64,000 nucleotides of DNA from Rozella allomycis CSF55 (Eukaryota). Position numbers and translations under genes: made by a program. Under the pieces are notes generated by a model that made no database searches, had not been told where the DNA came from, and saw nothing but the letters and a program-made list of their open reading frames with translations. Every line of letters starts with the position of its first letter. Within the stretch, counting starts at the first letter, position 1. Location of the stretch: assembly GCA_000442015.1 (NCBI GenBank), contig KE560937.1, positions 1 through 64,000 on the forward strand, given 5' to 3'. Below are positions 14,052 through 55,338 of the stretch, in pieces.

Positions 14052-16389
14052 ATGTTTTGGAAGTTTGGATATAACAATTATGGAGCAAGTGGGTTGGAAC
14101 AACTTTTGGATAAGAACGACTTGACCCTAGAGGAATTATTGAATGAAGATGAATTGCTTCAAGAAGCAAAAAGCCAAAACAAGAAACTTATTGACTAGTA
14201 CAATTTCCTTCATTATTTATTAGTTTATCCAAGCCTGAAGTGTTGAAAGAGTTACTTTCCCTAACTATTGCAGAAAATCTTGATGAAAATAAGCAATACA
14301 AGTATTTATATATTTGGAGTTTTTAGTCGATATCCGTATATTGCATCTGAATTGATATGTTGTGATATATGGCCAATGTATGAAAATTTGGTGACAGAAA
14401 AATACCTTTTAAAAGAGTACTGGAAGTATCTTGATAGGAAACGTCCTCTAAATCCATTGACCGCCTCCTATTTTTGTAAAGTGAATGGAATCTTGCTGCA
14501 AAAAATGACTAAAGACGTAATATTAATATCATTTTTCATATTTGATGTTTGAATTTATCAAGGAACAAGATGGTTTAGTTGGGAAAATAGTGACCCATAT
14601 GAATACATCTGCTATTGCTGAATTTTTGTTGAAGCTTGTAGATATGGAAGATAGTCTTTATGACTTTCGCATTGTTTCGGTAAAAGTTCATCAAAGTTCA
14701 CATTAGTGGTTGCAACAGCAAGGATTGATTAAGCACCTATTTAATATGTTAGACCCAAAACTAGATTCCGAGGTTTTTTTAAATTTTTTTATATATTTAG
14801 TCTCATTCAATGGCTTCACAGACCATAGTTGACTTGATTGCGATCACGTATATAAACGCTATGAACAAAGTTAATAGAGAGTGTATTTTATTTCAAGATA
14901 TAAAATCGTATTGAAATATTTACTCTATCAATAGAAAAGAATCCATGACAAAGTTGGTAGATTTCATGACTTTAGAACATGATCATTCAACGTCAACATT
15001 GATTTTCGGAATAGACATTTTGATAGAGTTGATGAGAAGGTCAATTTTGTCAAGAACAATGGATGGCATTCCTGCTGAATTGACCTGCGTAGATGAAACA
15101 ATAGAAGTTTTGTCCAAACGAATTTCCAAGTTTAATGAAATCTTCAAAAATCCAAAATCCTTAGTATATAATAACAATTGTTGTTAATTTCAGAGAGGAG
15201 AAATCAATACTACGGTTGGAAAGATGATACCACTAGGGGCTGAGAGACTAAAACTATGCGAGCTCTTTGCCGAGCTTTTTAGACTTCAAAGCAGAGAAAT
15301 AAATTTAGCCATGATAGAGAATAAGGTTTTATTCTCCTGCCTCGACTTGTTTTTTGAATTCCAGTGGAATAACTTTCTTCACTCTACTGTTTGTGATATG
15401 CTAATTAACGTCTTTGGTGGACCTCCAGAAAGTAATAAGGAGCTAATATTGTCGGTTTTCAGAGATGCGAAAATTTCCCAGAGAATAGTGTATGCACAAA
15501 AACTGAATGATGCCACAGTGTATTTATATATTATGATTTTAACATAGGGCTAAACCAAGGGGATTGCGTTTGGGTTACATGGGCCAAGTCACAATCATTG
15601 TGGATGAAATATTGAAGTTATTGGAAGAGCAACCTGAATATAAAGATCTTTTGGCGGGTACGTAAATTAAATTCTATCAATTGTAGAATACATTAAAGAT
15701 GATGATTGGCAGGAATTCATCAACAAGGCTTACCATGAAACAAAACAACGGGATAGTCAACCTCTTGGAGGACAGAAGCCTGATGTTGAGTCAAATATAC
15801 TCTCAGACCTTGGAGCTGAACAAGAACAAGTAAATATTTATATCCTCTTCCTAAAAGCTGGCCCGTTTTCTAACGCAGAAAATTACCAACGATCTGCCAG
15901 ATACATTTTTCTTCACAGATGAAATTGAAGTCATGCCAAAGTAAGTATTATGTTTACTTGTTTTTTAGTGAAATAAATCCAAACGAAATTGATTTTCTTG
16001 GATCAGGAAATGAAGACGAAAACAGTGAAGAAGAAACAGTAGACGAAACAATAGCAAGTCCAGTAGGAATTGACGAATCAGAGGACTTTTCTCCTACATG
16101 GACTGTAGACTTTGAAACGGCTTTCAAGAATACACCACAGCAAGATTTAACAATATCCACAGATCAAACTGTTTTTGCTATTTCTCCATTAGAGAGTAAT
16201 TTAAATTCATTGGTTATAAACTCTCCCATGTCTCCTAGAGATGCTGAGCACCACGTTAAAGACAGACTAATGAAAGACTCTCACCACGTGGAATTAGTAC
16301 GAGCTGTCAGTCCAAGAGTTGAACTCTCGAAGAGTGATGATGATATCATCAAGAATTTACACATCGACGAAGTGGATTTAGATAAATAA
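14052..16389 (+). CDS. SAPS-domain SIT4/PP6 regulatory subunit
   Basis: MFWKFG...LTLEELLNEDELLQEAK, PLGAERLKLCELFAEL, FQWNNFLH, RLGYMGQ; about 11 introns. Confidence 0.92.
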
Positions 16390-16412
16390 ATTTTTACCTG
16401 CGCCACTTGAAA

Positions 16413-17289
16413 ATGTCAGACTTGGAATCCGTTTCTTCTGAGGTTTCTAATATATCAAACGTAATTGTTGACTTTGATTTTAATAATCCCGAGGAAAAGG
16501 ATTATCATCCCGTGAAATCTCTTCTCACGCTTCAGTTTGGCTCCGAAGGTTCCCATGTTCCAAACCTGTCCAATATGGCCGATATCATTGTTGAGCAAGG
16601 CGGAAATATCGGTACATGCATAAATGTTGATGATATGTGCATGGCTATAAACACAATAATAGACTTGTCTGCGAGCTCGCAAGTAAAAGAAGACATTTTA
16701 AAATTTGTCACACATTCGAAGCCTTTCAAAGGAAATGATAAAATTTTAAAAGAAGTATTTAAACAAAACCATAAAATTGGGCTATTTATAAATGAAAGAG
16801 TAATGAATGTCCCTTGCGATGTTGCCCCGCCTCTTTTTCGACTACTTCACGAAAATATTGCGCAAGTAATGTTTTTACTTGAATTATAGTAGTGTTTTAA
16901 CAAAAACAAGTTTGATTATTACATATTGATTTCAAAAACCTACAAATATTCTCCATCCGGGATTGATTCTGATCGAGAAAATAATCAAACACACCTGAAA
17001 AAGAAACTGAAAAGGAATTTGGAGAATACGCAAACCCAAAATTCAGAAAATATGGTATTTCGATATATAATTTGTAAATTAGTTTGTAAATGCAGAGGAA
17101 GAGTTTTTGTTGCCATTCTCACACTCAACATTTTACATGAAATACTTCATGAGATCTTCAGATGCCAATAGAGTGTTCCAAGATGAATCTGTAGAACAAG
17201 AAAGATGTATAATGTTATTTAAAAATGACGATGACTTGCTTGACAGGATTCGTAAAGTACTGGTTCAAAAAATTGGCCCTGAATTTTAA
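16413..17289 (+). CDS. BCP1: Bcp1/BCCIP
   Basis: VDFDFNNP...DYHPVKSLL, GLFINERVMNVP.DVAPPL, FVNAEEE. Confidence 0.88.
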
Positions 17290-17494
17290 TTTACAGCAAA
17301 GGCCATATTAATAAACATAGTCTTTTAAATATGACTCTTTTTAGTTTTCGCTCTATTGAGAAATCAATTCGTCACCTACTCGTAAATCGTAATCAATGGA
17401 TATTTAAACCTAAAAATATAAGAATTTAGCTTTTTTTTCTTGGGAATCTCCTAAAATTTTCGCCGATTTCTTAGATGAGGTTCTGAATTTTCAG

Positions 17495-18482
17495 ATGGAT
17501 GAGGGAGACGACAAACTTGAGAAAAATTGTTGGATTTGCTTTGAATCTTCAGGAAAAATGATACATCCATGTAAATGTAAAGGTAGCTTAGGATACGTTC
17601 ATCAGCTTTGTTTGTTAACTTGGATAGATTTGCAAGAAGTTATAAATCCTACAGCTGATTTGGTGTGCCCAAATTGCAAAAATCAATACATTATTCTACT
17701 TGAAAAAGAAATTTTAGTCACTATTGGTGATCGTATAGTTTCCTGGTGGTAAGATGTTACATATTTGCCTTCTGAGGTTAAACACTTGTCTTCCCTTGTG
17801 CGTGATTGGTTCTTTGTTTGCATGTGTATATTCTTCTGCGTGGCTTTATGGAAAAGGTACGTCTAAAATGATTTTGGGATCTCGTGAGTATGATTTAATA
17901 ACGAGGAATGTGAAATGGTGGCATGCATATAAAATAATTGGTTTCCCATTGGTTCCTGTTTTTCTGATATCAATGAGATACAAATGGATGCTACATTATA
18001 CATCTGTTACTTTGTACACTATTCTTGCATTTGGCGATCATCCTCATAATGTTAAAAGGGAACTGTTTTATGAAGGACTACTAATTGGGACATTACCTGC
18101 GATTTCACCATTGTACTGTTTCTTAAGAAAGCATTTATTCTCGGGGTTATCGAAACTCTTCTTTAGTAGAAAACGACCGATTAAGGGTGAAGTACTTGGG
18201 AATATGAACGTGGAAGCCGTGAATGATGGGAATGATATCTTCACTGATACAGGGCCAACCTCTGAAACAGAACACTCATTTATCATTGCGACATCTCTCT
18301 TGTTGCCAATTGCGTCCTTTGTAACGGGAAGTTTGGTTTCTTATAAATTGAGGTTGAAACCGATTGCTCGAAATGTGTTAGGAGGTCTTATTTTTGTTTT
18401 GGTGAAGGACTTTGGTTCATGGTTGTATTATGAAAGAAAAAGATTAATTAAGCGAAAGAGAACAATAATCGAATATGAATAA
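17495..18482 (+). CDS. RING-CH (MARCH5-like) membrane E3 ligase
   Basis: CWICF...PCKCKGSLGYVHQLCLLTWI...CPNC followed by TM helices; one 28-nt intron. Confidence 0.85.
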
Positions 18483-18567
18483 AATAATGTTTAGGCAAGT
18501 TAATTAACAATATATACTGTATTCACATTTCAAAGACATTAAGATATTGGAGAAATTTCCAACGTTT

Positions 18568-20988
18568 ATGAGAACTAGTATACGAAGGAATTCTTCAGTG
18601 TCGTTCTCCAAATCAACATCAGTTTTATCATTTAAAACTATACCACAATTAGATATCAAAGCCTTTAACACAAATTCCTTTTCAGTTACTTCGTATATTC
18701 ATAATGCAGCATTACAGGAGCAATCTTGTGAAGATGGTTTAAGGGGACTTTACTATAATTTAAAGCAAACCAAAGATATAGTGGATTCCTCAGTTAAACT
18801 TAGTGTTTACAAGAACTACAACGAGTTTGTCATGATTGCAAAAGAGCTTTCACTTTTTGAAACAGATATGATCACATTGAAAAGCATGTTCAAAGAAAGG
18901 AAATCGCATATAGAGAGTCTTTTGGATGAAATAAATGATGTGGACCTTATCAGAAGGGGATCCTTTCTTGATGTCGAGGAATTTTCGCCAAGCTCTTGTC
19001 AGAATGAGATAAATGTTATTCCAAAATTTAAGAAAACCCTTTCTGCCGCTGCTCTCAGCAATCCATTTGATTCATTATCTCCTGAGAGAGTGAATGAACT
19101 TACAGAGTGGTTTGATGAAGTAGATGTGTGTATGTCTGAGTGTGATTACGACGGAGCCATTGAATATTTATTACAAAGTATCATTTTTTGTCTTTATTTT
19201 TAGTTCAATCCGTTGTAAATGATGAACCAGCCGAGGCTCCCAGAATAATTGACTATCAAAAGAAATTACAGCAGAGAAAAGAAAATCTTACGAAACTCAT
19301 TGGCCATGAGCTTTCTTCATTTTGGATATCCAAAAATAATGGCAAAATGCATATTGAACGCTTGATGAAATTAGGGTTAGCAGAAAAGGCGAAGGATATT
19401 TTTCTTTCTTCAAGAACAGCTTTGATTAAACAGAAGCTTGGAAATATAAGAATCACCGGTGAGATTTCAGACTACCTCTATGAGTACGGTATTATTAAGG
19501 CTACGATGATTAAAAATGCGTGCGACTGGTATAGTGCATGTTTTAATGACAAAAAAATGAGTTCGGGTAAGACTTAAAAGTTGATATGTTATTGCATTCG
19601 TTATTTGGACCAAAAGTGAATTGACAGAAATGATTTCTACAGTCAATAGGTTAATTTTCGATAATAAAAATACCAGTTTCCCAACCATTGCCGAATGCAT
19701 TAGAGGTTTAAAATCCCATATTAAGTCTGTAAATGATTGAGGGTTGTTTAAAACAGATTACTTTTGTGGGAATGGATTTTTCATATTTTGCTGACTGTGA
19801 GTTGCATGAGAAATTGAAGGAGGCCATCATTTCATATAAAAACGAATGTGAAAAGCTATTATCAAAGTATTCTGAAAAAGAAAACTTTGACTACGCTTCG
19901 GCTAAAACAAAAGCGAATCAAAGCCAAGAAAAACACGACGAACAATTCCAGTCAAGTAGATGTTTTCAACAATATTTAATAGCTAATGTAAGCGGTTGTA
20001 CAATAAAGTTTTATAAATTGATTTTAAGTTTCATGAATGATGTTAGCGGAATATTAGCTAATGATGTAACATTCAAATTGATTATGATAATAGCTACATG
20101 ATACATTTATGACGAATTGTATAGATCTTCTTACATATCACTGTAAAATCTTGATAGAGAAGATTAGAATCAATTCTAATTACTCGGATCGTCAGGTATT
20201 AATGTAAAAGAGACGAAAAAGGTATTTAATGTCTTTTATGACATAAAATTTGTTCACCAAAAGTTTTTACCAAGTATTGAACAGCAAATGAAACGTCGTT
20301 TAAATAAAGAAGTCGGTGAATATAACTTGTTAGCAAGTCAAATTGATCGTAAGTATATCATGATTTGAACCTAGAAATGTATGAAAGAGCTATGAAAAAA
20401 TATTTGGAAAAAAGGGCCTCTGATATTTACTTTGGTCTGAAATTAAATTCTGTTGATTATTCTCTAGTAAAAACATGCACCTGACTGTAAAGGATAAAAA
20501 TGTAGAAGACAATTGCAAGATTTCTCCTCCCATTATTCAAGTAGACGTTAATGTACGTTATCAAAGGCTCTTGAATTATTAAACAACATATCATCCGAGT
20601 TAGATTTATCTCTTGACCGGGATCATGTTTTAAAAGTGCTACTGGACAGTATCGCTCTCCATTTCTACTCTAAATTTTCTAATAGCAATAGCATTCTTGC
20701 GCAAATTAAGCCGTTTGGCCTTGGAGGAGTACACCAATATTTGTTGGATATACAATTTTTTATGCATGTCACCAAAGATTATCTTTCCAAAACCGCCAAG
20801 GGTATTTTTAATGAATGCTGTGAATCGTCCCTAAAGCAATTTCTAAATAATAAATTAAATTCCGATAAGCGTGCGCTCTTGAAAGTAAATCAAATACTTT
20901 CTTTGTAATATAGGATTCGAAATGGTTCGACTCTCAGATTCAGAAACAATTAAGCCAATCCTTCCAAAATTTTGGTTCTTCTTTATGA
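18568..20988 (+). CDS. EXO84: Exocyst subunit Exo84-like
   Basis: VYKNYNEFVMIAKELSLFETDM, EVDVCMSECDYDGAIEYL, LMKLGLAEKAKDIFLSSR, FGLGGVHQYLLDIQF. Confidence 0.75.
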
Positions 20989-21114
20989 AAAAATAAACTA
21001 TTACTACTGCAAATATTATATTTTCCTTCAGTTCGATGAATGGGCTCCTCCCTNTCAATTCGAAAAGAAATATAATGAAATTCAATTACTAATTTGTAAA
21101 CAATTAATTCTTCC

Positions 21115-22286
21115 ATGAACGTTCAAGTTGATGTACTACTCTTTGCCCTATTTTATTAGACACCAATAAGTGTTCCTGGAATCGGTAAAATTATCGAACA
21201 AAGAAACAACAAATTCATAAAGCGGGGGTTCGATTTTAAAATAATGGTCGTTGGTACGAAGTTATAATTGCTACTTACATAGGTGCATCCGGTCTAGGGA
21301 AAACTACATTCATGAATACCCTCTTTTCTTATCATTTGAAGGATGTGGATCATCAAAAACCGGTCCTGGAGAAGGGAAAAACTGTAGAAATCAAGGAACA
21401 TTCTTTTGGTAACATATATTCTCTTTTAAAATTGTCATGAATGATAAATATGAAACCTTCCGTTTAAATCAGGGAAAAGAGATTAAGATGCGATTGACAA
21501 TCGTTGACACACCTGGGTTTGGGGATCGGGTGAATAATGACCAATGGTACTCAGAATATATCAACTCGAAAATTAGTTGGGAGCCTATTGTTAATTACAT
21601 AAAGAAACAATATGAGGATTATTTAATTACGGAGTCAAGTGTTGATAGACCATTTCACTTTGCAGATAAAAGAGTTCACCTAGTCTTATATTTCATCGCA
21701 CCAACAGGACATTCGTAATCACAAAAAATTCGATACAAAGACTTAAACCTATAGATATTATTGCTATGAAAAACATAAGTGAACATGCGAACGTAGTACC
21801 AATTATCGCCAAGTCTGACCATCTCACAAGCGAAGAGAGGGAATCATTTAAACAAAGGGTATCCAAGTTGCTTATATCACAGTAGATTAAAAAGGAAATG
21901 GCATTCAATGAAATTAAGTTATATCCTTTTGACTTCCCCAATGAGAATTCAGTTGAAGAGCTGGCATTAAATTCTAAGATCAGAGTAAACATTGTTCGAA
22001 TTCTATTTTTTAGTCTTTCATTCCATTTGCCGTAGTGGGATCTGAACGATTTGTTCTTGGCAATGGCAACAATAAAGCAGGGCACGGAAGAAAAACAAGA
22101 TTTGGAATAATAAACATTGAGGATGAAACTCATTGTGAATTTGTACCTCTCAAAAGTTTTATAATGGAGTAAACATATTTCAAGTCTTCAAAAAGGACGC
22201 ATTTACAGGATCTGATTGACACAACATCAAAACTCCATTATGAAAATTACCGAAGACACGTTTTGTCTTCAGAAGATGTTAAATAA
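21115..22286 (+). CDS. Septin
   Basis: GASGLGKTTFMNTLF, IVDTPGFGD, DKRVH, PIIAKSD, PFAVVGS, HYENYR. Confidence 0.95.
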
Positions 22287-22506
22287 ACTTTTTTGTGCGG
22301 TTCTGAGTGGTACCCTCCATCACTTAAGTGGTATTTTCCATCAGCCACATTTATAATTTCACGCCATGGATCCGGGCGTAGAGTATTACACGCACACTTT
22401 TGTGAATTTTTTTATCTCCGTGCATCCTAGGCATAGATTAAAGAGAACAAGGAGAATTAACAAAGTTGAGTGGAATAAAGGCACACGATACGAGTGCACA
22501 TATCAT

Positions 22507-23146
22507 ATGAAAATGCACCAATCATTGTTTATGAAACCTTTAATTGTTACAATGGAACCTAAGTATGCTGTGCATTCACATATAGGTAAGTAATTCACAT
22601 GTTTATAACCTAGCTGAATTTCATTGCGCGATTACTTCAGTATTTTTCGCTGCACCCGTACTTTTAATATTTTTATTAGACTATATACCGATTCTTGTTA
22701 AATCGAGTATATTATGGTCAATATTCACTGCATTGATGTCAGCAACTTATCACGCGTTAAACTGGAACTTTTTAGGGCAACTAGATTGCATGATGGCGTC
22801 AAGTATGTCAGTTCTTGTCATGTTTGCCATAATGTCTGTTAGATTTCCAATGTACGATGACCTAATAACCACACTGGCTGTATACACAACGCTGCTTTGT
22901 ATTTCACTCTATGCTTCCTTTCCTCAAAAATCAACAATTCTTGCTTTAACTATTATCGGCTTGAATTTAATTCCTATGGCGTGGCTTCTAGTATATTTCG
23001 ATGATAAATTAACATCCACATTTGGAACACTGGCTGTGATATCGTTTTGTTTGGATAGATATCATATAACTGCTTCTCACTCCTTTTGGCATATTTTCGC
23101 AGGTATTGGTATGTTTTTAGGACTTAAAAATGCAATTATTCAATAA
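22507..23146 (+). CDS. Alkaline ceramidase-like (CREST family) membrane hydrolase
   Basis: EPKY...IAEF, SATYHA, QLD and HSFWHIF motifs, with multiple TM helices. Confidence 0.75.
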
Positions 23147-23168
23147 ATGTAATGTAAGGTTTATTGTA

Positions 23169-24244
<1,076 letters not shown>

Positions 24245-24364
24245 TCACCGGGGTTAACTCTCCCGGTTTATCTTAAAAATAAATAATACCCAATTTTGTT
24301 TTTGGTGCGCATAAAATTTTCAGAGCGTGTTGAAGATTGGAAGATTTTTTTTGAAATTTCAGAG

Positions 24365-25032
24365 ATGAATGAGTGTATCAACCATGCGATGGCTATTCAC
24401 CAAGTGACGTCTTTATTGCATAAAAAACTGGATGTGTAATTAGTATCAAGAAATAATACAGAATCACCGACACTGACCAAATGGAGAGGATTAGCCGTGA
24501 TTTGCAAATATTAGACCAGGAAATGCTAAACACGCTGGAATCATTGAGAGAATTTATGGATAAAGATAAAAAAGCGTGTGAATCGGAATGGCTTACATCT
24601 CCTTTAACTAGGTGCGTGAGAAACGTGGTGAATCAACAAAAAGACGTTTATGAAAAGAAATGCGATGCTAAATTTAACGACAAGGAAAATAATGTTTTTT
24701 ATGACAAGGAAGAGTGTTTAGAAGACTATATAGAGATGGAGATAGGTAAACTAGAGGGAATTTTCGAAACGAATGCGTCTGAGAATGATTCAAAACGATC
24801 GAGATGTACTAATAGAGAAAGAGAAGCAGTTGAATATAGATCTTTGAAAGAATCGACATTGTCATGTTCATCGTCTCAAAGCGAAAGTAGTGGGGATGAT
24901 GAATTGAGGTTGAAAATGGAGGAGCTTGAATATTCCAACTTGGCAAGGCTTGAGATTCTATTTCAAGACTTTTTAAAACGAAAGGAGTTAGATGGGAATA
25001 ACTTTTTGAAGAATAAAAAAAGAAATTGTTAG
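24365..25032 (+). CDS. Hypothetical acidic coiled-coil protein
   Basis: 183-aa ORF plus a short upstream exon through a GT-AG intron; no motif recognised. Confidence 0.55.
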
Positions 25033-25102
25033 ATAATTTAACAAGTTTAACGATACATGCTTTTTGTTTAAGAGATATTTTCTTCATTTAAGAAATATTG
25101 TT

Positions 25103-28100
25103 TTATTTGTTTTGCTTTAATAATTCCAATCTTTGTTTAAGATCTGCCAAAGTATCTTCAGCCATTTTTGTGGAACTCGAGGGTTCAGGAATTTGACTGG
25201 TCTGTACGTTTAAACTTGAATCTTTTTCAGTGTCACTTGTTTGAATGTTATAAACTTGCTTGATTTGTTCTAATTTCTTGTGGTAATCTTGAGCTGGATT
25301 GGCGACTAGAAAAAGTTAAAATGAATGATTACCGAAATTGATTGATGCTGAAGGAGCAGCAAAGGCAGGTGGAGGTTCTCTTCTTTCTAGAGCAATGTTG
25401 CATAGACCTCTTTTAATGTACCCTTGAAAGAATGAACCTGTTTTAGAGAGATGAGATTCGATTTTAGGAGTGAGTTGAGGATATTGTTTTTGAAAGTCGT
25501 ATAATTCTTCCATACCTTGTTTAGTTAATTCTTTGGAACCAATATTTTTAAAAATGACATACAATTTCGCTTGAGCTTCTTTTTCAGAAATTTCGTTATT
25601 TGGTTTTGGAATTTCTGAATTTTGAGATTGAGAAATTTCAGGAATTGGATCTGTGCGATCTGAGCGAATTTCATTCTTTTTTATAGAGTCTAGCATTAGT
25701 GATATGTAATTGAAAGCAAATGATTGTTCATAGTTATCTAATGATTGAATATCTACGAGGATGGAATCTTTGAGAGACAAGACTAGTTCATGAAGCATAG
25801 TTTTGACAGTTTTGAGGGGAGTGTCTGAGAGTGCCAATTTGTTTAAAGATCTCTTTTTCCATTCATTTGGCGGGATGTTAGTTAAGAATTGGTTGATCAA
25901 GTAAATTAAATGTTTTGAATCCAGATTGCAATCCTTGACGTCGTCTTTGATTAATCTTGTGACTTTCCAAGCGCATTTCATGACGTATTGGCAGTATTTT
26001 GCAGTTGATGAATCTTGTTCGGTGATTTTGTCTTGATGGATGAGATTTGAAGTTCTTTCTAATTCACTCAAAATAACAGAATAAAGATCATTTCTATTTG
26101 CATTGTCTAGAATTCTAACTATTAAAGCATTTAAAGCTCTATTTAGTTGATCACCCGATTCCATGGAAAGAATTTTGTCATCTAAGATTCTATCCAACAA
26201 TTCTTTGAATAATAAAAGTAAATTTTCTTTTGACACGTGTAAAGTAAAAGTTTTAGAGGTAAAGATTTGAACAAGGGCGTTTAGTATATGTTTCCTTAGT
26301 CTAGCCCCTTCCAATAGATCAGAGCTAGGTTCTAGAACAAATGCAATGTGTAGTTTGAGAGTTAAAGATTGTAAAAGTTGATTTAAATTTGAAATGATTA
26401 AATTTGGATTTGAATTTAATAAGCTTGTGAATTCTTTTAAAGCATCGATAGACTGAAGTGGAATTTCGCTTGTTATTTGAGTTGAAATTAAATCAACGAT
26501 ATAAGCTACAATTACAGGGGTCAGAATATTTTACTTGGCGAATTTCTTGATTGAATTAGAGGGGTGGCAGTAGCAAAAGTATTCATTTGAACTTTTTCAA
26601 CGAGCATTGAAGGATCAATTTTAAATGTTTTAGAAATTTGTGGCAAAGATAAAGAATCCAAACCAAGAGAGAATGGTTTCAATTTTTCAGTAATGTTTTC
26701 ACTAGAAGTATTTTCAGTTGAATTTTCTTTAATAGATTCCTTTGGAACACTTTCACTTTTATTTTCAACCTTTTCAACTTTTAATTCAGTGGAACTTTTA
26801 GAAAGACTTTCTTTGTTTATAGATCTTCTTTTTATTCTTTCATCTAACAAGAATAGAAATTTATCTTCCAATTTGAATAGAGATCTAATTGAAGGATCTA
26901 GTGAGTGAGCAATTGAAATTGTATTCAAAGCAGCGTTTCTAACACACGTGTCTCTGTCAGCAATGAAAGAAGTAATAAAGGGGATAGATTTAGGCAGAGA
27001 GGAAATAGATAAACCATATTTATCAAATAGATTTCCAATTTCTTCTAAACATTCAGATCTAGTTCTTGCATTTTTAGATTTGCAACCATCAAGTATAAAT
27101 AGGAATAGTTTACTACCAGGATATACTTTGGCTAAAGAGTGAATAATATTCTTTATTCTAGATTTAACAATTTCTTTTGAATCGCCAGTTTTCATTACAA
27201 GAAAGGGAATTAAACAATTTGCTTCATAATCATTTAAATGATAATTAATTTCATCCAACTTTTTCATTAAATATTCAATGTAATCTAAAACTTTAACTGT
27301 AATTGTTGTATTTGTATCATACAGTCTAATCGAAATATATTTAAATATCAAATCCAAAACTTTTATTTTTAAATCAAAATTATCAAACTTTTCTAATAAA
27401 TTTATTGCTTCTAAATGATCTTTAAAATTTTCACTAAACAACAAATTATGAAAATTATTTGAAAATTCAGAAATGCATTGTTCTTTAAAGAATTCAAATA
27501 AATCTCTTCTATCTGGCTCATAATTCCACTTGTATATCCCTTTATCTTTTTCCATTCTTGATTCTTTATTCCCCAAACTTGTTATTATCACTTCTTCATT
27601 CTTATTCACTAGAGTTTTCCTTGGTGAATTTAGTTTTAAACTTGATGAACTGTTTAATTTTGAACTTGAATTCATTGGTGATAAACTAGACATTTTGGAA
27701 ATTTCACTATTTGGTCTTTCTTTCTTTTGCTTGACTTCTTCTTTTTCAACTTTATCTTCACATTCTTTTTCCTTGTTTAATGTTAAAAGAAATGGAGCTA
27801 TTTGATTCAATAAAGATGGTTTGAGATCCATTGTCTTTTCTTTAATTAAATCTTGGCTTGGTTGAATCAATTCTAAAATAGATTGTGATTGTTTTCTAAT
27901 ATCTCCAGACTTGTCAAACAAACATTGAATTAAACTAGTCACCAGAAATGAATAATCTACATTCTTTTTAAATATAGATATTTTCTCTTTAAGCCACTTC
28001 AACAGATCTTTTCTTAAATTGGGATTATCTGTCATTAAAACGGTGCCAATTGGAATTATTAACACTTCCAAGCCACATGAACTAAAAATAGAATCCATAG

Positions 28101-31020: not shown

Positions 31021-31104
31021 GCAATAACAAGGGTTAGAAATTTCAAAAATACTTTTGGAGTTTCTAAAATCACAAATTGTATCGAAAAGAATTTTATTAA
31101 TCAT

Positions 31105-31509
31105 TTAGATGGAATATTCAGCTCTGGATCTTGGCAAAGTTGAATCTAGTTTGAAAAATGGATTGTAACCATCAACCGCAGAATCATCAAGAACATACTG
31201 CTCTGGATTGATTTTAGCAACATTGTGTTGATGTCTGGCTAAATTCAAATAGTCTGAAGCCCTGACATGACGCTGTTCAAACTGTGGATCCTTGGACATT
31301 TCATGTTTTAGTAATTCAGAATCGGGTGTTTTCTGGGCAGGCTTGACATGAGATTCCGCCATACCATTTGCTACATGTGTAGCGCCCATAAAGGCTGCTT
31401 GCATTCCGAGAGTATTCATGGCTAGCTGTGATCCTTGTGACATCATTGCTGTTGGTAACGCTGATATTTCAAAGAATATCAATATCGAGGAAAGTAAAAT
31501 GTTTCTCAT
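31105..31509 (-). CDS. Small putative secreted protein
   Basis: Intronless 134-aa ORF with a signal-peptide-like N-terminus (MRNILLSSILIFFEISA-LP). Confidence 0.6.
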   Translation of the reverse strand: MRNILLSSILIFFEISALPTAMMSQGSQLAMNTLGMQAAFMGATHVANGMAESHVKPAQKTPDSELLKHEMSKDPQFEQRHVRASDYLNLARHQHNVAKINPEQYVLDDSAVDGYNPFFKLDSTLPRSRAEYSI

Positions 31510-31703
31510 AGATAATGGTATGTTGGGGTTCCGTGAACCATTCCTCTACTTAAATAGTGCTCTAGAAAATTTTCATTGGTTAGTTATGAAACATGGACCG
31601 AAAAACGGACCAATGAAATTCGGTACAAAAATAGACTTGGTCACGTTCACGTATTATGTAAACAAATAAGTGAAATAGTCATTCGTGATCATTTTTACCA
31701 TTC

Positions 31704-32867
31704 ATGAAACTAATTAGATTAATCTTTACTACATTAATCACCGCCTTTACACTTCAGTCCACAATTCCTATCTCTTCGTCTTTTCCTGATATGAGTAGCT
31801 GTTTAACTAAAACAATCACCAGCAAAGTCAAAGAAAGATTGCAAAAGTATTTTCTGGGGAAAAAGGTTATGACTGAGGAACAAGTTGCGCTGTCTTTAAA
31901 CAAGCTGTTGTCCAAGGATCCGGTCACAGACATTGAAGTCTATAATCCAGAAGGATTCTGGTCATTTTTGCCAAAGAATTTGTTAGAGCCAGAGTTATTA
32001 CATCGCATGGCATTCTATAATGGTCTAACATACTGTGCTTCAGAGTCAGAAGTACAAGGTGTCTTCAATAACGCCACATTTAGAGGGAAAAGGCACTTTG
32101 CTTCAAAGTCCAATATGCTAAATTGGATTGAGTTAGACGGATTGAAATCTATTACAAAAAACAAGGATTTGAGAGTTATGATTGCTGAAAATCCTAGGGA
32201 CAAGACTTTGGTTATTGCATTCAGGGGATCTAGTAACTTAGACGATTATATAGCAAATTTTAACTCGGAACCGGTGCAGTTTGGTGAAAATAACACGGAT
32301 ACCCGTTTTCCTTTGAAAACTTGCCCCATTCCAGTAGACGGTCATTCCAGATGGGCATTCGAGGGATTTTTGAACAAATTACCTTTAGATATTTTAAGGG
32401 AATTGTCCTTTTATTTAATTAAAGCTTTTAAAAATCATATGACTCATAAAGTAGTGATTACTGGCCATTCTTTAGGGGGTGCCTTAGCTCTCTTTTTCGC
32501 CTTATATATGAAACTAAATTATCCTGAATTCGCTGTATCTGCGATATACACTTATGGTCAGCCTGTTATTGGGTCCACGTTTTTCACGGAGTGGATGGCT
32601 AATTGCATCGGTGTGAACAAAATAGTCAGAGTAGTTTCAGAGAACGATATTGTTCCATGGGTAAGATCGAACTCACAGCAGTCACATCCGGCAAATATGC
32701 CTGAAATATATGTCCCAAACGCTAATGAAAATAAATGGATAGCCTGCAAAGGTTCTTTGGATCCAAAATGCAGCATACAAACCAAGTGCGATGCGAAAGA
32801 TTGGACGACTCACAGATTTTACGGCGGCCTTTTTGCTGGAGAGCAGCTTTGCAAAATCTTTAAATAA
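31704..32867 (+). CDS. Secreted class 3 lipase
   Basis: Signal peptide, VIAFRGS, VITGHSLGGALA, YTYGQP, NDIVP, C-terminal His; intronless. Confidence 0.92.
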   Translation: MKLIRLIFTTLITAFTLQSTIPISSSFPDMSSCLTKTITSKVKERLQKYFLGKKVMTEEQVALSLNKLLSKDPVTDIEVYNPEGFWSFLPKNLLEPELLHRMAFYNGLTYCASESEVQGVFNNATFRGKRHFASKSNMLNWIELDGLKSITKNKDLRVMIAENPRDKTLVIAFRGSSNLDDYIANFNSEPVQFGENNTDTRFPLKTCPIPVDGHSRWAFEGFLNKLPLDILRELSFYLIKAFKNHMTHKVVITGHSLGGALALFFALYMKLNYPEFAVSAIYTYGQPVIGSTFFTEWMANCIGVNKIVRVVSENDIVPWVRSNSQQSHPANMPEIYVPNANENKWIACKGSLDPKCSIQTKCDAKDWTTHRFYGGLFAGEQLCKIFK

Positions 32868-33891: not shown

Positions 33892-33935
33892 AAACGAAAT
33901 TTCCATAATTTTTGAGACAGTTTTTTCTTCACGTA

Positions 33936-41989: not shown

Positions 41990-43891
41990 TCACACCACTG
42001 CACTTTTAGGGGGATCGAAGGTTACGTTGTACGTTTTCTTGAGAAGGGAATTACTGTATGATTCATCCTTTCCATAATAACCTGGCGCGGGAAAATTATT
42101 TACTTTCGCCTGAAATCTTTCATCCTGTAATCATTTAAAGAATATTGTACAATAGTTGTGTGCTTATAGATGTCAACATCAATCTGCTGTTTATCTAACA
42201 AACGAGGATTGTAAGATGAAGGACCAGGTATATCAATGTTTCTATTTTGAAAGATTTCTCTTTTAGTGCCAGATGCCAACAAAGAGTGATTCAACCACCA
42301 TAAACCCTTTTCTGTTACGGTCTTGTACGACCTATCCAATTCGTAGTCCCCTGGGGCAGGTTGGCCTTTCCTGGACTATCAATAAATTTACTTTCTTCAT
42401 TTTTATTAAACCTGTCGGCACTTGACTGAAAAGGGGCGCAATATTTATTTTTCTTATTCACACGATTTTCTTGGAATTCACACGGTCCAGGTGTTGGCTA
42501 TTTCATTTGGAATAAAGGAATACCGGTGGTTGTTTGTAATTGAATCTCAAAGATGAAACATTAAATGGTTTGCCTGACCCTTTATTCTTATTCTTCATTA
42601 GACTTGACCCCAAAGATGTTTTCTATTGATGAGAATAGAAACTATTTACTGATTCGATATCGTAACTTCCTGGCCCAGTTTCAGGATTACACTGCGCTAA
42701 ATAGGAATATCTCGACTGGATTGCGTTTCTACTAGTGCTTCCAGCAATTTTCGCTGGGGCGGTCTTTGGTGGTTTTGGATAGTACGCTGACGGTCCTGGG
42801 AACTCGTTGTTTAATTGGACTCCTAAATATATGCCGTTGGTCACCTCGTGCCCTTTTGACTTCACTATGGGTCAGAAATCTTAAGTCTTACAAAATGCAA
42901 ACTTTTTTTCATTATTTTTTGACTTTTTTTCTGGTTTATACGCTCCCGGGCCAGGTAAATTCAGTTATTGTGATACATGGGATGTTACCTGTTTGTTAGC
43001 CTGTTTGCTGACCATTTCTGTAAACCTAAGAGAATTCACGTTTGCGTCATTCAAAAGCTGGTTCATACATTCTTTCGATATGTTTTTCTTAGTTTTCTTT
43101 TCCTTATTGTCGACAAAAGCTTTGGCTTTGTGATATTGTCCTCAAGTGAAGTATTATGTATAATTACCAGGAGATGGCCCATCTTTGATGGTGAAAATTT
43201 TACCTTTTGGTGTTCTTGAATTTCCGAAACTTGTTCCTTTATGATGTGTTTTATCTTCTTCTACAAATCCTCTCAATTCACTAACAAAAGAAATTGATAT
43301 CCATTACGGACATGAGTATTTAAATCGATTCGACGTCCGCCTTCTTAAAGATCCATCTAAAATTTTAAATACAAAATATAATGACTTTCATGTATATCAT
43401 ACCCCTCGGCATAGTCGCCATAAGGTATTGAAGGAGGCAACTCTTTTCTTGTCCAATGAATTTGACATCTCTCCGATTCTGATTTTTCAAGGTCTGGGAC
43501 TAACAAGCTTGCATTTATGCATTTTCTCATGTATGCGGTAAGCGGCGGTTTTCCTTGCGCGAGTATTTGAGATTTCGGATAGTACGCTGTCGGAGCAGGC
43601 GTTGAATTCTCATCTTTAATAAACCGCTATAACTATTATCGATCATAATATGATTACTTTTGATCTACCGAAAATAGAAGATCTGTCGCTAAACGTACAA
43701 GTGTTGATGTCATAGTTAGCAGGAGCAGGTCCTTCTTGCGCGTATTCATCGAAAATTGATTCTTTTTTTGATAAGTTAGAAAACGGGGCGTAACTAAATT
43801 ACTTTCTTACGTCTTGATTACCTCTTTTTGATTTTCGATTCTCCATTTTCGTATACGCCAGGAGCAAGATTAGGATATTTTGCGGTCTCAT
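41990..43891 (-). CDS. SHIPPO/PG-rich repeat ciliary protein (STPG2-like)
   Basis: Many PGPGxY-type repeats (GPAPANY, PGPSAYYP, TGPGSYD, PGPSSYNP, PAPGY); ends LLKKTYNVT. Confidence 0.8.
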
Positions 43892-44095: not shown

Positions 44096-46721
44096 ATGCT
44101 CAAAACACTCAGCTTGATCTTTTTGGCTTCATGGATATCTTTGGTCGTGAATATTAATAGATATGGAGAAAATACCGTTTTCGATAGAAAAGTTGGAGTG
44201 TTTACAAGGAAGCAAAATGAATTTTCAATCGGGGCATTAATTCCTGTAACTATTCTAGAATCTAGGAAGAACAGATACCCAAATCAAGTAGGATTTTATA
44301 GAGCAGAAAGTTTTCGATGCAGCATAGAGAAATTTAATTCCTTGCGGGCCATTAGAGGCGCGACAGTTTACTACAACATTCAAGACACAGGAAACAGCAA
44401 TCTTAATACATTCTATTCTACAATGTCCTTCACTACAGGTGGTGATGGGGAATCTCAGGTGGTGATTGGACTTGATACATCCGACGCAGCTGATTTCATA
44501 GGTCGCTATTTCAACGATCTCAAATTCCCTGTAATAGCTTATGGAGCAACTTCTCTCGCTTTAAATGATACCAAAGTGTTTTCGACAATATCTAGAGTTG
44601 TTCCAAGTCGAAAATACACCATTGATGCCATGTTGAAGACCGCCGTAGCGTTGAAATGGAGGGTACTTTCGGGTATATTTCCAAATGATGTCCATGGACT
44701 TTCAAGTATGAACTATTTTTTGAAAAAGGCCCGCGAGCTAAATATATTGACTCTTTGCACGACAACTATGCTGGACTTTGATGATAGTAGCACAGATTTG
44801 ACAGATTTTATAAATTGCGTTCAAAGAAAAGGTGTCAAGGGAATAGCCACCTTTAGTAAACTACTGACTTGCATCATATAGTGTCTCAGTTCATAACTCT
44901 CTCCATTATGAATAAAACGAAAGAAAATACTTTTTACAAAGATGTAGTTTATTTTACGACAGAAGATTTTCAGATATTTTCTCCCTGGGTTGTTAATTCG
45001 TCTGGGCTGACTAAAATATCTTATCTCGAGGGGATCTTCTGTTTTACACCAAAATTAGGTGATGTTGACGATATTCATGAATGTGTGCTCAAAAGAAAGC
45101 CGAAATTTATCTTGGATAGCAAAGAAATTATCTTCAATAGCTACTGGGATAATCAATTTCGTTGCAAGTCAAAACCTTTACCGGGCACTGATAATGTTAC
45201 ATCGTGGGAATCGTTACCACTCTGCGACGATGACTACGAGAGAAGAAGTATTAATGGATCGTGCAGGTGTACTGGAAAAGAGCATTTAATATGGCCAAAA
45301 GACTTTCTTATGGGATACATTCACGATGCGGCACTAGTCGCAGTGAAGGCGATTGATAAAATAATAAACAATTGCGAATCACTTAAAAATGAAACTTTTT
45401 GTAAGAAAATCGAGTACAGCGCTGAAGACGTTGGTTGGGTAGTTAAACAAATAACTGTCCAAGGGGCGACAGGAGAGATATCATTTAACGGTATTGATAG
45501 AATTAGTAACCTTAGTATGGAAAATACAAATAGAAAATGATATTGACATAAATCAGTATTTGAAGAATGGAAGTACAATACTCGCTGGAAATTATTCTAA
45601 CGAGGTGCTCTACTTACCCATCGCAAAGAAATTGATTTGGAAAAACGGAATTGTACAGGTTTCCTCGGTAAAACCCGTTTTCCTTAAAACTTGGGATACT
45701 ATGGTTGTAATTCTTAATGTATTAGCTGGTGTTGGAATAGCGGCGTCTATTTTTCTTATTCTCTATTTTTGGAACCAAAGGGAGCATGCTGTAATTAAAA
45801 GAAGTAGCCCTATTTTTTGCACGTTTATACTAATTGGATGTCTTCTCATTTATTTATCAATGATTGTTTGGAGTTTGCGTCCGTCCAAAGCGGTGTGTAT
45901 TTTGCAAGTTTGGATACCTGTGATAGGCTATGGCACTATAATGAGGTATGCATTTTTCCTATTTAATAAAAGTAATCTGTTGGCTAAAACTTATAGGATT
46001 TGGAAAATATTCAATAACGTCCAGTTATTGTTAAATGCAATTCGAGATAAGGATCTGTTTATCATAACATTTGTATTTCAAGTTTTGGAAGTTGTTTTCT
46101 TATTAGCATGGATGCTATCGAGTGGGTTGCCTTCAGATACAATGGTTGTTAGTGAAAAAACGGATGAAATGCTTTTAGTATGCTCTTCTATCGATACCAC
46201 TTATCGAAAAGCATTCGCCGCCGTGCTTTTGTTGATAAATTCTTTGATGGCGATATTGGGGAGTATAATGGCCTATCTAACCAGAAAGGTGGATTCTGCA
46301 TTCAATGAATCCAAGTTTATATCTTTTTCAGTAATGAATTCAATCAATTCTAAGCCAGATGTACAACATGGTTCTAGTTCTTATAATGGTCACACCTGTG
46401 TATCTTCTATCCGGCGAGGATTTAGATGCTATGAAGCAAAAATATGTTGTTCTTTCATTAGGATTTTGGTTTATGAATACTTTTACTATGATATCTTTGT
46501 TTGTTCCAAAGTTATTAGAGATCATTAAACGTGAAAAATTGCAAAACATGGATACTGGAAATCCTATGGCTAGTTTGAAATCACCATTACATCCCAAAGT
46601 TGGCTATGCAAATTTCCCGAGTGAAGGAGGTCTAAGAAGCCGAAAAACTACCAAGGTACCATTCTCAAAGTCTAGTGCTCCTCAAATAGTAATTGGGGAT
46701 TCCAGTGAAGAAGACGAATAA
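44096..46721 (+). CDS. Class C GPCR (Venus-flytrap ectodomain plus 7tm_3)
   Basis: Signal peptide; PVIAYGATS..LND...F.TISRVVPS; GATGEISF; VIKRSSPIF, LLAKTYRI..IF, AFNESKFI, LFVPK. Confidence 0.9.
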
Positions 46722-46751: not shown

Positions 46752-47313
<562 letters not shown>

Positions 47314-50665: not shown

Positions 50666-50732
50666 ATTGGATTTTGATTTATCAGTGACTTGCTTTTCAT
50701 AATTTAAAATAAATCGATAACCTTTAAACCGA

Positions 50733-51245
50733 ATGGTATATCAAGAAAGGAGGCAACATTACAGCAACAACTACAACAATAATTACAACGACCGCCCAAA
50801 GTACAATCAATCTCAACCAAGATATAATAATCCTCATTCTTTCAAGCGAGAAAATGATCGCTATCCAACGAAAGATTACAACAGAGACACGCATAAAGAA
50901 CGAACCCCCTCACCTCGTGATCAGCGCTCAAATGAAAGACTTATTAAAGATGGTATGTCCAGCACGGATATACTAAATGGTATTTTCGTTTTTTATTTTT
51001 GACTAGTCTTATTGAAAGAACAACGGAAAGGAAACCTGGTACCAGTGCCGGTTTTCTTCATGCCTGTGCCAGAAAGTAAAATCAAAAATTATTCATCCAA
51101 AATGGTCGCAAACCTTGTTGTCGACTTTAGCCAGATCAATTGGGCGGATGCCGCAGATGCAAAATCAGATAATGAAACAGATAATGGCAATAATGGAAAA
51201 GGCTCGACAGACGATGCCTGTGATTCAGACAATGAATCTGAATAA
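50733..51245 (+). CDS. Hypothetical low-complexity protein
   Basis: Two ORFs joined by a GT-AG intron at about 50980-51006. Confidence 0.55.
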
Positions 51246-51263
51246 ACTATTTATTGCGCGTGT

Positions 51264-52167
51264 TTATATAATTAACGCATTCAAAGCTTCATACGATTTC
51301 TTGAAAAAGTTCAGCTGCGCTTCAATCATATCATTTAACTGTTTTAACAGGTCAGGCTAAATTGAATACACAAAATCATTTTACATTCTCTGTGACTGCT
51401 TTCATGTGTAATATTGCGTCTTCTACATTAAGATTGAATTGCTCCTCGGCAAGTTTCAATTCTTGTGAGAGCTTATAGATTCGAATATTAAAAATTTACC
51501 ATTTCAATTTTATCATTAGATGATTGTCTTAATCTTGATTTTACTGTATCAAGCTCCAACCTGGCCTTTTGTGCCGCTTTCCGTGCCTTGGCTGCAATTT
51601 GAAAAGTTCCATCCAAAGTATTCATAAAAGGCGCTAAAAATTTCAAAGCAATTTGATCGTCCTAGCAAAGGTAGTGAAGCATACGTACCATTTCATCACG
51701 AGCTGATGATACCTTTTCAAGAGCAAAAGCATAATTTTTCAATGCCTCGCCAAAGATTTCATTTTCCGGTAACATCTCACCACATTGCATAGTTGTGGTC
51801 GCCATCATCATATGGAGAGTTCTGTCACTATTCTTGTCTCCCGTCGACACCGAATTTCTCTTTGTTATGCTTTCATTCACTTTGCTGACTACATTCATGA
51901 CCGATTCCTGGATAGCAGGTTCATAGTTATTCGAATAAATAAACTTTTGAGCCACTTTGCACATCCCTTCATAAGCCGATTTATATTTCTCCATTTTTGA
52001 CTCCAACTCTACGTATTCTTGAGGGAATGGTGTGATTTCGTCAGCTTTTCCCATTTTTTCATTGGCAATCAATATTTAATTCATTAAGTACTTACTTGAA
52101 CAACTTGCTCAAATCCTTTTGATATTTTTTGCGCAAAGGGGTTAATCTTATCTCGTAATGATTCCAT
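51264..52167 (-). CDS. GVP36: Gvp36-like BAR-domain protein
   Basis: EKMGKADEITPFPQEYVELE, ARKAAQKARLELD, AEEQF. Confidence 0.82.
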
Positions 52168-52280
52168 TCAGCCACCAAACAAATGGGAAGCAAATTATAG
52201 ATTAGCATATTGTTAAATTGAAGAAAATAGTTAAAATTGTTATTAAATTATAAATATTCTTTAAGATCAATTAAATAAGT

Positions 52281-53248: not shown

Positions 53249-53413
53249 TATGCCGATTAAAAATATCACGTGGACTGGTATGCCGGGGTGAAAGGAAACA
53301 ATTTGCTACTTGCATTCAGAAATATCCAAATTCAAGATTAAGATATTCAAATTATAATTCATTTTCAGCGTTTTCGTCTTATCTCCCGTTTGTCATTTCT
53401 GGAATTTTTGAAT

Positions 53414-53713
53414 ATGGAAGACATTTACTATAAAACCTTTAAGGGTGGAATGAGAGCCGTACCATTCATGATTCTTGGCGTTTTCACAGGCACAAAGTTG
53501 TTCACATTAAGGGTAATTCGTTATATATTTTAAGGAGCAGAATGAAGATAAAATAAAGAAATATCAACAAGCCATGGAAAATAGAATGAAAAATAAGGTA
53601 GAGATAGAATCAGAGACGGAAGCAGTATGCACTGAAAATAATACGTCGAATGGAATTGAGCAGCCAGAGCAGGTATGAAATAAATAATCAGTCCGTGGCT
53701 ATTAGGTCATTTG
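53414..53713 (+). CDS. Small hypothetical single-TM protein
   Basis: Continuous frame through two short GT-AG introns; hydrophobic segment VPFMILGVFTG. Confidence 0.45.
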
Positions 53714-53739
53714 AAAAATATAAATAGAATAAACGACGT

Positions 53740-55338
53740 TTATGAAAAAGATTTAGCCTTGTATATCAATAAATACGCTGTGTGCCAGTCACCTCCGCCG
53801 TCAAGTTTGAGAATGTCATCGGATGTTGCTGGGCTCACTTTGTCGTCATCAAACTTCCACCATTTATCTATGAATGTCGAGTTTTTAAAATTACCTGAAG
53901 ATTGGTCCTTAGTCCAACCAATGTAATGTCCAGAATCCGCACTCCTTCCAATGTGGGTTAATACGGCTGTCAATTCATAAAAACCAGTAGTATTGGATCC
54001 AACGTCTATAAAACATAATAATTTTTTTCACGTACCATCAAATTCTGAAAGTTCTAACTTCAAATCAGAAACGTCAGCATTTTTCTAAGTTTAAAAGGCA
54101 AGATACATTTACCCCTCTGAGTTTAACTTCATTTTCATATTTTCTTATAGCTTCACGATTTGGCTCCATTTTCATTTTTAAAGCATCGGTACAATATTCG
54201 TACATATCCAACACGAGTGGAAATTTGACTTTTCTAAGAATTTTTGCCTTTACTCTCTCCGCAGGTTTCCAATAAAATCTAAGCATGTTAAGCGTCAAAT
54301 ATTTTGGCAATCTATTGATTAAAGTCTTTTTAGAATAACTGCATTGCCTTCCAAGGGAGGGCGAGGTTTTCTCGATAACTTCAATCATGGACTGCAACAC
54401 ACATAAATGTCTTAATTACCTCGTTCAACCCATCATTAATGTAGTTAACATTTCCAGAAATGTGGCAATTTAATTTATCTACAACTTCATTAGTTGTTGT
54501 GGGTGCCTCGTCAGCATTTTCCTGATTTGTTAAACTAGTAAAAAATGAAGTAAAAAAATACGTTGAAACTAATTCTAACGACATATGTCTATTCACAAAG
54601 TTGGTTTCTCCACTCTTTAAGTATTCTTTCAAAACATTAACAATGCAACTCCAACACTCTTCTGCATCCTGTTGCATAAACTGACCTCGGCTTTGTTGAG
54701 AAAATTGAGGATTAACAAGTCTTAAGACATTTAAAAATATCAGCGGATTCGAACTTTCAACTGTCTTAGACAAATTATTGAACAAGTCCCTCAAGGAAAC
54801 AGTTAATGTTTTTCTAACATCAGCATCGATTTGGGAATTAAAATTAAAACTATTATATTACATCTTTTAGCAATTACTTTATAAGCGCATTGGATAATTC
54901 AGGAATAGCCTTTAAGCACTGCAACGAAGCATTCATGTAACAGGTGTTGCCTAGGTTGACTAGTCCTCCAGGAATGTTTGTTGCTTCTGCAAGTTGTTCA
55001 TCAGTCATATCTTCCAGAAACACAGGCTTCTGTACTGGCTCTTTTGGTAATTCCTCTGCAGTGCCCATCATCATAAACGTATGTCCCTCCGAAATCCCAA
55101 GTTTTGATAGGTCAGTTTCATCCTATCTTTAATATTTATTTTATTTTACTTTTAATATTCCTCCTTTAACCATAATCTTCTGTCTTTCAGGCAACACCTC
55201 AGTTAGAGAATACAATTGCATTTTGAATGTTAAACCAGTCTCCTTCAGGTCCAAAGGAATATTTTCAAACTTCTTTCCGCTCCATCTAACATTAACAGTT
55301 TGCAAAAGACGATATGCCTTACCGTTCACAACGCTCAT
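53740..55338 (-). CDS. UBP6: Ubp6/USP14 deubiquitinase
   Basis: UBL domain PERQKIMVKGG, GLVNLGNTCYMNA, QQDAEE, SGHY, GGGDWH. Confidence 0.96.

Follow-up and report, generated by a model that had tools for sequence, protein, structure and literature searches.

We examined a stretch of 64,000 nucleotides (nt) from Rozella allomycis CSF55 (contig KE560937.1, positions 1 to 64,000; called the window from here on) and found that several conserved genes in it carry very short intron-like elements that begin with GTAA and end with TG in place of the usual AG. This recurrence exceeds chance for about five genes, one of them newly found. Judging from the reading frames and the homology on either side, we consider it probable that these TG ends are the sole 3' splice sites (UG in the RNA) of ultrashort introns, placed at the usual distance from the donor with no AG in reach. 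An initial annotation of the same DNA had proposed such introns in six or seven genes. About five genes now appear solid or likely, including one that it had not listed; the septin and Cgi121 elements are candidates, and the Ubp6 element is doubtful. The seven elements of that annotation were all found where it had placed them, and an eighth TG site, absent from its list, was detected at 42962-42988 (-). All eight begin with GTAA, end with TTG or CTG and measure 26-29 nt:

14517-14544 (+), predicted intron, 28 nt, GTAA...TTG, phase 0, in the SAPS (SIT4-associated protein) gene; supported by the Pfam SAPS score
19567-19594 (+), predicted intron, 28 nt, GTAA...TTG, phase 1, in the Exo84 gene; supported by profile score, a shared intron position and contigs
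21409-21434 (+), candidate intron, 26 nt, GTAA...TTG, phase 1, in the septin gene (21115-22286); the alternative is a 71-nt AG intron at 21409-21479
33797-33825 (+), candidate intron, 29 nt, GTAA...CTG, phase 0, in the Cgi121 gene; precedes a 21-codon last exon
36132-36157 (-), predicted intron, 26 nt, GTAA...TTG, phase 1, in a mitochondrial-type tyrosyl-tRNA synthetase (TyrRS) gene; the C-terminal domain lies in another frame
42962-42988 (-), predicted intron, 27 nt, GTAA...CTG, phase 0, in a sperm-tail PG-rich repeat (SHIPPO/STPGR) gene; newly found
52070-52095 (-), predicted intron, 26 nt, GTAAGT...TTG, phase 0, in a Gvp36-like BAR-domain gene; follows a 24-codon first exon
55296-55322 (-), element of 27 nt, GTAAGG...CTG, near the start of the Ubp6/USP14 gene; in frame, no stop

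Ultrashort introns of the window and a proposed TG-ending class

Exons of the window are 100% identical to the public septin model P0002 of R. allomycis CSF55, and a second public Rozella model, P0270, corresponds to the BAR-domain gene. Beyond the first 7.6 kb the G+C content is 34-35%. Genes were modelled with an exon-chaining script. Its codon log-odds came from 20 open frames, each 220 codons or longer, and were combined with a length term, position weights and GT donors. When AG was the only acceptor permitted, the region from 7.6 to 64 kb yielded 32 gene models with 138 introns; 128 of these measured 24-32 nt, and 121 measured 26-29 nt, in agreement with the estimate of the initial annotation of about one hundred introns of 25-30 nt. 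The donor was GTA in 125 of the 128 short canonical introns (A at +3 in about 97%) and GTAA in 82, and position -3 was occupied by T in 73, A in 34, C in 16 and G in 5. The AG used was the first one at least 25 nt past the donor in 125 of the 128. Mean G+C was 0.257 in introns versus 0.355 in exons. A k-mer and positional search of the 128 introns revealed no strong branch-site or polypyrimidine motif, and a weak excess of TTAA/TAAT was seen 8-10 nt from the 3' end.

Two canonical introns were used as controls:

21547-21576 (+), canonical GT-AG intron, 30 nt, in the septin gene; in frame, without a stop, and exactly as in P0002
36442-36471 (-), canonical intron, 30 nt, in the TyrRS gene; passes over an out-of-phase AG at 26 nt

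Removal of the septin intron adds about 18-19 bits against a septin profile, indicating that stop-free, in-frame introns exist here and are missed by the chaining script. The TyrRS intron uses the AG at 30 nt because the flanking frames require a length that is a multiple of three.

Ten introns of the AG-only model were outliers in length (41, 46, 50, 58, 66, 67, 70, 71, 72 and 76 nt). Five of them start at the donors of TG candidates (SAPS, 46 nt; Exo84, 76 nt; septin, 71 nt; Cgi121, 72 nt; SHIPPO, 66 nt), and the TyrRS and BAR genes are simply truncated by the AG-only model. For the comparisons that follow, we used a set of seven sites, made up of the six initially annotated sites other than Ubp6 together with the SHIPPO site. 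On this count, TG-ending introns would number about 7 of about 135 in the window, or roughly 5% (about one in twenty). At all seven sites, the interval from about 15 to about 45 nt past the donor is free of AG in any phase. Beyond the TG, the first AG lies 46 nt from the donor in SAPS, 50 in Exo84, 64 in septin, 67 in Cgi121, 79 in TyrRS, 51 in Gvp36 and 46 in SHIPPO, which places it 18, 22, 38, 38, 53, 25 and 19 nt beyond the TG, respectively. This AG is in phase for SAPS and out of phase for the other six. The initial annotation had also stated that no nearby in-phase AG exists in four of the genes, and this was borne out, as Cgi121, TyrRS and Ubp6 have none within 90 nt of the donor, and Gvp36 has one at 5 and one at 89 nt with none in between.

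The G+C content of the elements is 0.10-0.25 in six of the seven and 0.37 in the remaining one. The seven donors are all GTAA, versus 82/128 for canonical introns (a modest difference, p ~0.04), and a pyrimidine is found at -3 in all seven, versus 89/128 (again modest, p ~0.08). No single sequence family underlies the TG introns; pairwise comparison of their interiors gave a mean score of -1.76, versus -2.86 +/- 1.05 for random sets of seven canonical introns. Removal of the element restores a conserved reading frame in Exo84, SAPS, SHIPPO and TyrRS, and the Ubp6 frame needs no restoration. With respect to intron type, the elements have the GT donor of U2-type introns in the context usual for this genome and lack the 3' AG. 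U12-type introns are characterized by an extended donor, (A/G)TATCCTT, and a TCCTTAAC-like branch site; the donors of the TG elements read GTAA followed by variable bases and do not conform to this donor consensus.

The preference for TG was assessed by rerunning the chaining 15 times, each time allowing AG and one other dinucleotide with the same 5-bit penalty. TG gave the largest gain in score of the 15 (35.7 bits), followed by TT (23.1 bits), though TT is twice as common, and all six TG introns picked in the run with AG and TG fall within real genes. There were 22 intragenic picks for TT, AT, AA, GA and CA; eight of these sit at four of the TG junctions (Exo84, septin, TyrRS and the BAR gene), displaced by a few bases, and several more are run-offs beyond gene ends. 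The other nine dinucleotides yielded 0-2 intragenic introns each. When all non-AG ends were allowed at an 8-bit penalty, TG terminated 5 of the 11 non-AG introns picked. Taking the TG frequency of 0.067 in intron interiors, the chance that all seven junctions have an in-phase TG at 26-29 nt is ~8e-8, and with all 12 atypical junctions as the denominator, TG at 7 of 12 has p ~3e-4. A depletion of TG just 5' of canonical acceptors was considered as evidence and discarded, being confounded by the general scarcity of G there.

The DNA letters were checked in contigs from four runs (X1, X2, X6 and X7), compared over positions 14400-34000. These contigs are genomic, with no intron-skipping joint. 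The region holds the SAPS, Exo84, septin and Cgi121 sites; the TyrRS, Gvp36, SHIPPO and Ubp6 sites lie beyond 34000. Other letters were seen at 18 places in the contigs and at none of the four TG ends. Two to four read sets cover each end: X1 and X2 for SAPS, all four for Exo84, and X1, X2 and X6 for septin and Cgi121 (SAPS lies outside X6 and X7, and the listed X7 pieces fall short of both the septin site and the Cgi121 acceptor). The assembly may have been built from X1 and X2, which are therefore not independent; X6 and X7 belong to other studies. The window departs from all four read sets by five substitutions at 16905-16928 and by 9 nt at 31056 that the reads lack, the latter inside a large TOG-domain gene (25103-31104, -). 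Both are probably local errors of the reference assembly, and the check is thus able to detect errors of this kind.

Two further observations were made on the contigs. At the single N at window position 21054, contigs from X1, X2 and X6 end at 21053 and resume at 21055, and they carry 8-97 loose letters that cannot be fitted to the window; this break implies that the N hides a gap of indefinite length between the Exo84 and septin genes. Second alleles at about one third of the depth were seen in X1 and/or X2 at 15533-15587, 22379-22428, 23541 and 31672-31723 (for example, 85.9 of 289.8), which hints at heterozygosity in a 2:1 ratio or at more than two genome copies.

Evidence from individual genes

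Support from reading frames and protein families is strong for the predicted introns of Exo84, SAPS, SHIPPO and TyrRS. An exhaustive HMMER search with the upstream exon of Exo84 recovered 177 relatives, and a hidden Markov model (HMM) was built from the 59 that had at least 550 residues; a word-based homolog search with the Exo84 exon gave no match, nor did a Pfam search with the downstream exon alone. The TG model scored 454.0 bits against this HMM versus 415.5 for the 76-nt AG model, a gain of 38.5 bits. The join after TG aligns without gaps ('MSS-A-FVIWTKSEL' against the consensus 'maS-g-fvkWakeei'), and the conserved Exo84 text is predicted to be restored solely by a cut after TTG. Twelve metagenome Exo84 loci were obtained in a second scan with a four-sequence alignment, a scan with the protein P0120 as query having found no contig. 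In 8 of the 12 (L004-L011), a phase-1 GT-AG intron of 58-79 nt is present at exactly the same codon; the other four (L001-L003 and L012) are intronless there and read straight through S-[Y/N/G]-[F/L]-[V/I]-x-W. The position common to the eight loci places the Rozella Exo84 element at an old intron position.

P0120 itself (a JGI/IMG protein of 448 residues, on an 11,493-nt contig) is a 53%-identical relative of Exo84 that was called as a single open frame, and it ends 7 codons past the residues that precede the TG intron in Rozella ('...RMTS|GLALSLR'). This early end suggests that the uncultured relative probably has an intron at the same spot.

In the SAPS gene, the exon starting right after the TG matches the Pfam SAPS profile from 12 to 48 with 32.3 bits, versus 21.7 bits (19-48) for the exon of the 46-nt AG alternative, so that the TG model is ahead by 10.6 bits. 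The AG at 46 nt is in phase but removes residues that the family profile matches. The upstream SAPS exon alone found no match in Pfam. The SHIPPO site was chosen by the chaining model once non-AG ends were allowed, and the 26 codons right after its TG match the Pfam SHIPPO-rpt family (23.2 bits, cutoff 20, E-value 1.4e-4). The 66-nt AG alternative would delete the 'NLPGPGAY' core of this repeat, and read-through runs into a TAA. In the TyrRS gene, the upstream frame reaches a stop 4 codons into the element. The 50 codons past it, in another frame, match positions 37-83 of the 83 of Pfam SYY_C-terminal (E-value 1.3e-6), and the same codons match residues 391-436 of the solved TyrRS 6n0w_A (E-value 0.004); the upstream exon alone had no match in PDB or Pfam. 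The AG nearest to the TyrRS donor, at 79 nt, is out of phase. Homology thus bears on the junction in all four genes.

For the Gvp36-like BAR gene, support for the predicted intron is moderate. A 24-codon frame opened by ATG ends exactly at the GTAAGT, and the match to Pfam BAR_2 (from profile position 14) opens with the third residue of the next exon, upstream of the internal Met at which P0270 starts. That public model (gene 51089-52167) is therefore without the first 24+5 residues. A word-based search with the BAR exon returned Rozella's own model as its only match, and a Pfam search with exon 1 alone returned none. In the septin gene, the public model P0002 uses the 71-nt AG intron, a length far outside the 26-29 nt class. 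Both public models that could be compared thus miss the TG intron, as the initial annotation had expected of gene predictors, and its recurrent GTAA...TG class overlooked by AG-only prediction stands, on DNA and homology, for four to five genes rather than for its full list.

Exon 1 of Cgi121 has a borderline match to Pfam CGI-121 (positions 17-70 of 159, E-value 2.5e-5, 24.8 bits against a cutoff of 25), and the TG model gives a protein of 156 residues that ends at a stop. No match was obtained with exon 1 in PDB or with exons 2-4 in Pfam. The alternative, read-through to a TGA after 9 codons, is a live one. The Ubp6 element, in frame and free of stops, is probably plain coding sequence: its G+C of 0.41 compares with the means of 0.257 for introns and 0.355 for exons, and a GTAA followed by TG at the end of 27 nt occurs at 8 of 103 exonic GTAA sites. 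The Pfam ubiquitin domain of Ubp6 starts just past the element under either model.

A possible mechanism and the alternatives

If the TG ends are used as proposed, the elements would be ordinary mini-introns of the major spliceosome with a pyrimidine-UG (YUG) 3' end in place of YAG. An intron in this genome would be little more than GUA(A/U) and a length of 26-29 nt, with the first AG some 25 nt or farther past the donor as its usual acceptor; in introns lacking an AG within that range, the UG at the same distance would be ligated, the terminal G being retained and U at -2 presumably tolerated. Choice of the 3' site by distance, with U accepted for A, fits the data, as the initial annotation had supposed. 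In the yeast P complex, G(-1) of the 3' splice site pairs with G(+1) of the 5' splice site and A(-2) with the branch adenosine (bioRxiv 10.1101/212811). Given these pairings, a kept G with a variable -2 would be the least disruptive deviation. We lean, with some reserve, towards UG as the constitutive 3' splice site of about one in twenty introns, with the 3' end set by a distance of some 26-29 nt from the 5' site and strict reading confined to the terminal G.

A number of observations weigh against sole use of UG. We infer the cut at UG in the RNA, its constitutive use and a structural reason for the tolerance of U from genomic DNA and protein comparison. The chaining script is ad hoc and was trained on this window alone, and three of the seven sites (TyrRS, Gvp36 and SHIPPO) lie outside the contig check. 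An HMM built from 60 septins gives 364.7 bits to the TG model and 366.7 to the 71-nt AG model; no homologs were retrieved that would support the first exon of Gvp36; the 21-codon last exon of Cgi121 has no match in Pfam or PDB; and the Ubp6 element, being in frame without a stop, does not require an intron. The AG-only model also contains five atypical introns (41, 50, 58, 67 and 70 nt) that start at none of the TG candidates' donors, and at four of them (17252-17301, 50 nt; 17389-17429, 41 nt; 31651-31717, 67 nt; 58287-58344, 58 nt) no in-phase TG was found at 26-29 nt. Mini-exons may be hidden in these four, or their ends may be non-canonical in some other way, or the introns may truly be longer. 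Such longer AG introns count against a pure ruler, as does the TyrRS intron at 36442-36471 (-) that passes over an AG at 26 nt, which also counts against a strict first-AG rule. In humans, TG is not used by itself as an acceptor, and mutation of AG to TG leads to activation of other AGs and not to splicing at TG (PMC2374985); an AG lies 18-25 nt downstream of four of the seven TGs here, compatible with the 28-nt limit of the human tandems.

This last point is also the basis of a different explanation, in which the intron is defined by the downstream AG and UG is only an alternative second-step site; both mRNA forms would then exist, and the TG form would not have to be the dominant one. Human TG 3' sites occur only beside an AG within 28 nt (PMC2374985), a distance that SAPS (18 nt), Exo84 (22), Gvp36 (25) and SHIPPO (19) share. 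We regard such an arrangement as unlikely. The nearest AG lies beyond that range in septin (38 nt), Cgi121 (38) and TyrRS (53); AG-defined introns would measure 46-79 nt in a window where 121 of 138 introns measure 26-29 nt; and the first AG is out of phase at six of the seven sites, with the one in SAPS deleting profile-matched residues. The frames and profiles indicate that the AG products would be defective at four to five sites, and since most of the AG alternatives disrupt the frame or remove conserved residues, the Rozella TG looks like the sole productive site. Splicing at AG only, as in the public annotation, would leave the TG-to-AG stretch intronic, start the BAR protein at its internal Met and end TyrRS early. 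P0002 and P0270 were both built in this way, and septin scores alike under either model. Yet AG-only splicing costs 38.5 bits in Exo84 and 10.6 in SAPS, removes the SHIPPO repeat, means that the intact C-terminal domain of TyrRS, in another frame, is never translated, and requires an in-phase TG to occur by coincidence at 26-29 nt in every one of five introns measuring 46-76 nt; we hold it to be quite improbable.

Rozella is an obligate intracellular parasite, and the acceptors might be in decay, an A-to-T change having broken them under relaxed selection, with the genes mis-spliced or on the way to becoming pseudogenes. The downstream frames are nevertheless open and conserved in what are housekeeping genes, and the donors are stronger than average. 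Moreover, random decay of AG would be expected to yield six different single-base variants, of which only TG is seen, and this explanation therefore seems very unlikely. An error of assembly or sequencing, with AG as the true letters, gains some credit from the two places where the window differs from all four read sets, but is largely refuted at the four TG ends checked, where two to four runs each, including two from other studies, show no difference; overall we give it next to no weight. Equally hard to credit is that there is no splicing at all and that the frames are joined by ribosomal frameshifting or bypassing. The frame changes themselves are the sole point in favour of this, whereas the elements all combine a perfect GTAA donor with the modal intron length and an intron-like AT content, and the Exo84 element lies exactly at the intron position of other fungi. 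We retain use of the TG ends as sole 3' splice sites as the probable explanation.

Several other features of the window may be recorded. Its first 7600 nt contain eight single N letters, with a G+C content of 0.44 in the first 4 kb, and hold pieces of a Ty3/gypsy-type retrotransposon (RVT_1 and RNase H at 1169-2509; gag/Ty3 capsid at 5976-6947) as well as an intron-like 26-nt element that occurs twice, at 4012 and 4817. Elsewhere there are genes for a class C (7tm_3) G-protein-coupled receptor (45455-46528, +; Pfam E-value 5.7e-39), a class 3 lipase (31689-32867) and a GATA factor (11336-12220, -). Rfam and tRNA scans of the window gave no match.

Significance and comparison with known systems

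Should the proposed use of UG be correct, the terminal AG rule would not be absolute for the major spliceosome, and a lineage basal to fungi and microsporidia would have UG as a sole acceptor. A percent-level class of sole non-AG acceptors in housekeeping genes would be known here for the first time in any organism, and the introns of Rozella would provide natural substrates on which to test how position -2 is read in the second step. About 5% of the introns in public Rozella gene models may then be wrong, examples being the truncated BAR protein and the loss from AG-only models of conserved Exo84 and SAPS residues and of the TyrRS C-terminal domain. Phylogenies of fungi and microsporidia are commonly rooted with the Rozella proteome. 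Gene predictors for genomes with ultrashort introns should in that case permit TG ends.

The literature on GT-TG (GU-UG) ends comprises human, Micromonas and other scattered cases. Our search of the literature on Rozella introns and splicing, which did not extend to the genome paper (Curr Biol 2013) and its supplements, found no report of a TG acceptor; the Rozella S23 introns have been described as about 30 nt long and lacking the Encephalitozoon motifs (PMC6349667). TG is the best-documented non-AG acceptor of U2-type introns; in humans it is found in 0.02% of introns, always as the alternative to an AG that lies no more than 28 nt away (Szafranski et al. 2007, PMC2374985). The Rozella elements resemble these human TG-AG tandems in their GT donor of the major-spliceosome type, their terminal TG and the preference for a pyrimidine at -3. 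They differ in making up about 5% of the introns of the window and in having the nearest AG 38-53 nt away at three of the seven sites. The strict requirement for AG is explained by the structure of the second step in yeast (Wilkinson et al. 2017, bioRxiv 10.1101/212811), and acceptance of U at -2 in Rozella would be a departure that we infer.

A TG-ending intron class in a microbial eukaryote is also seen in Micromonas, where the introner elements IE-B and IE-D have GT-TG ends and are repeated, mobile and 100-6,494 nt long (PMC3879977). The TG introns of Rozella, in contrast, measure 26-29 nt and are no more alike than random canonical introns, and the one in Exo84 sits at an old, shared position. 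Ultrashort introns are found elsewhere, in Paramecium (about 25 nt), Stentor (15-16 nt) and chlorarachniophyte nucleomorphs (18-21 nt), and to our knowledge these have been described as GT-AG throughout. Like them, the introns of Rozella combine a very narrow range of lengths with weak internal signals, which suggests that such introns are recognized as a unit.

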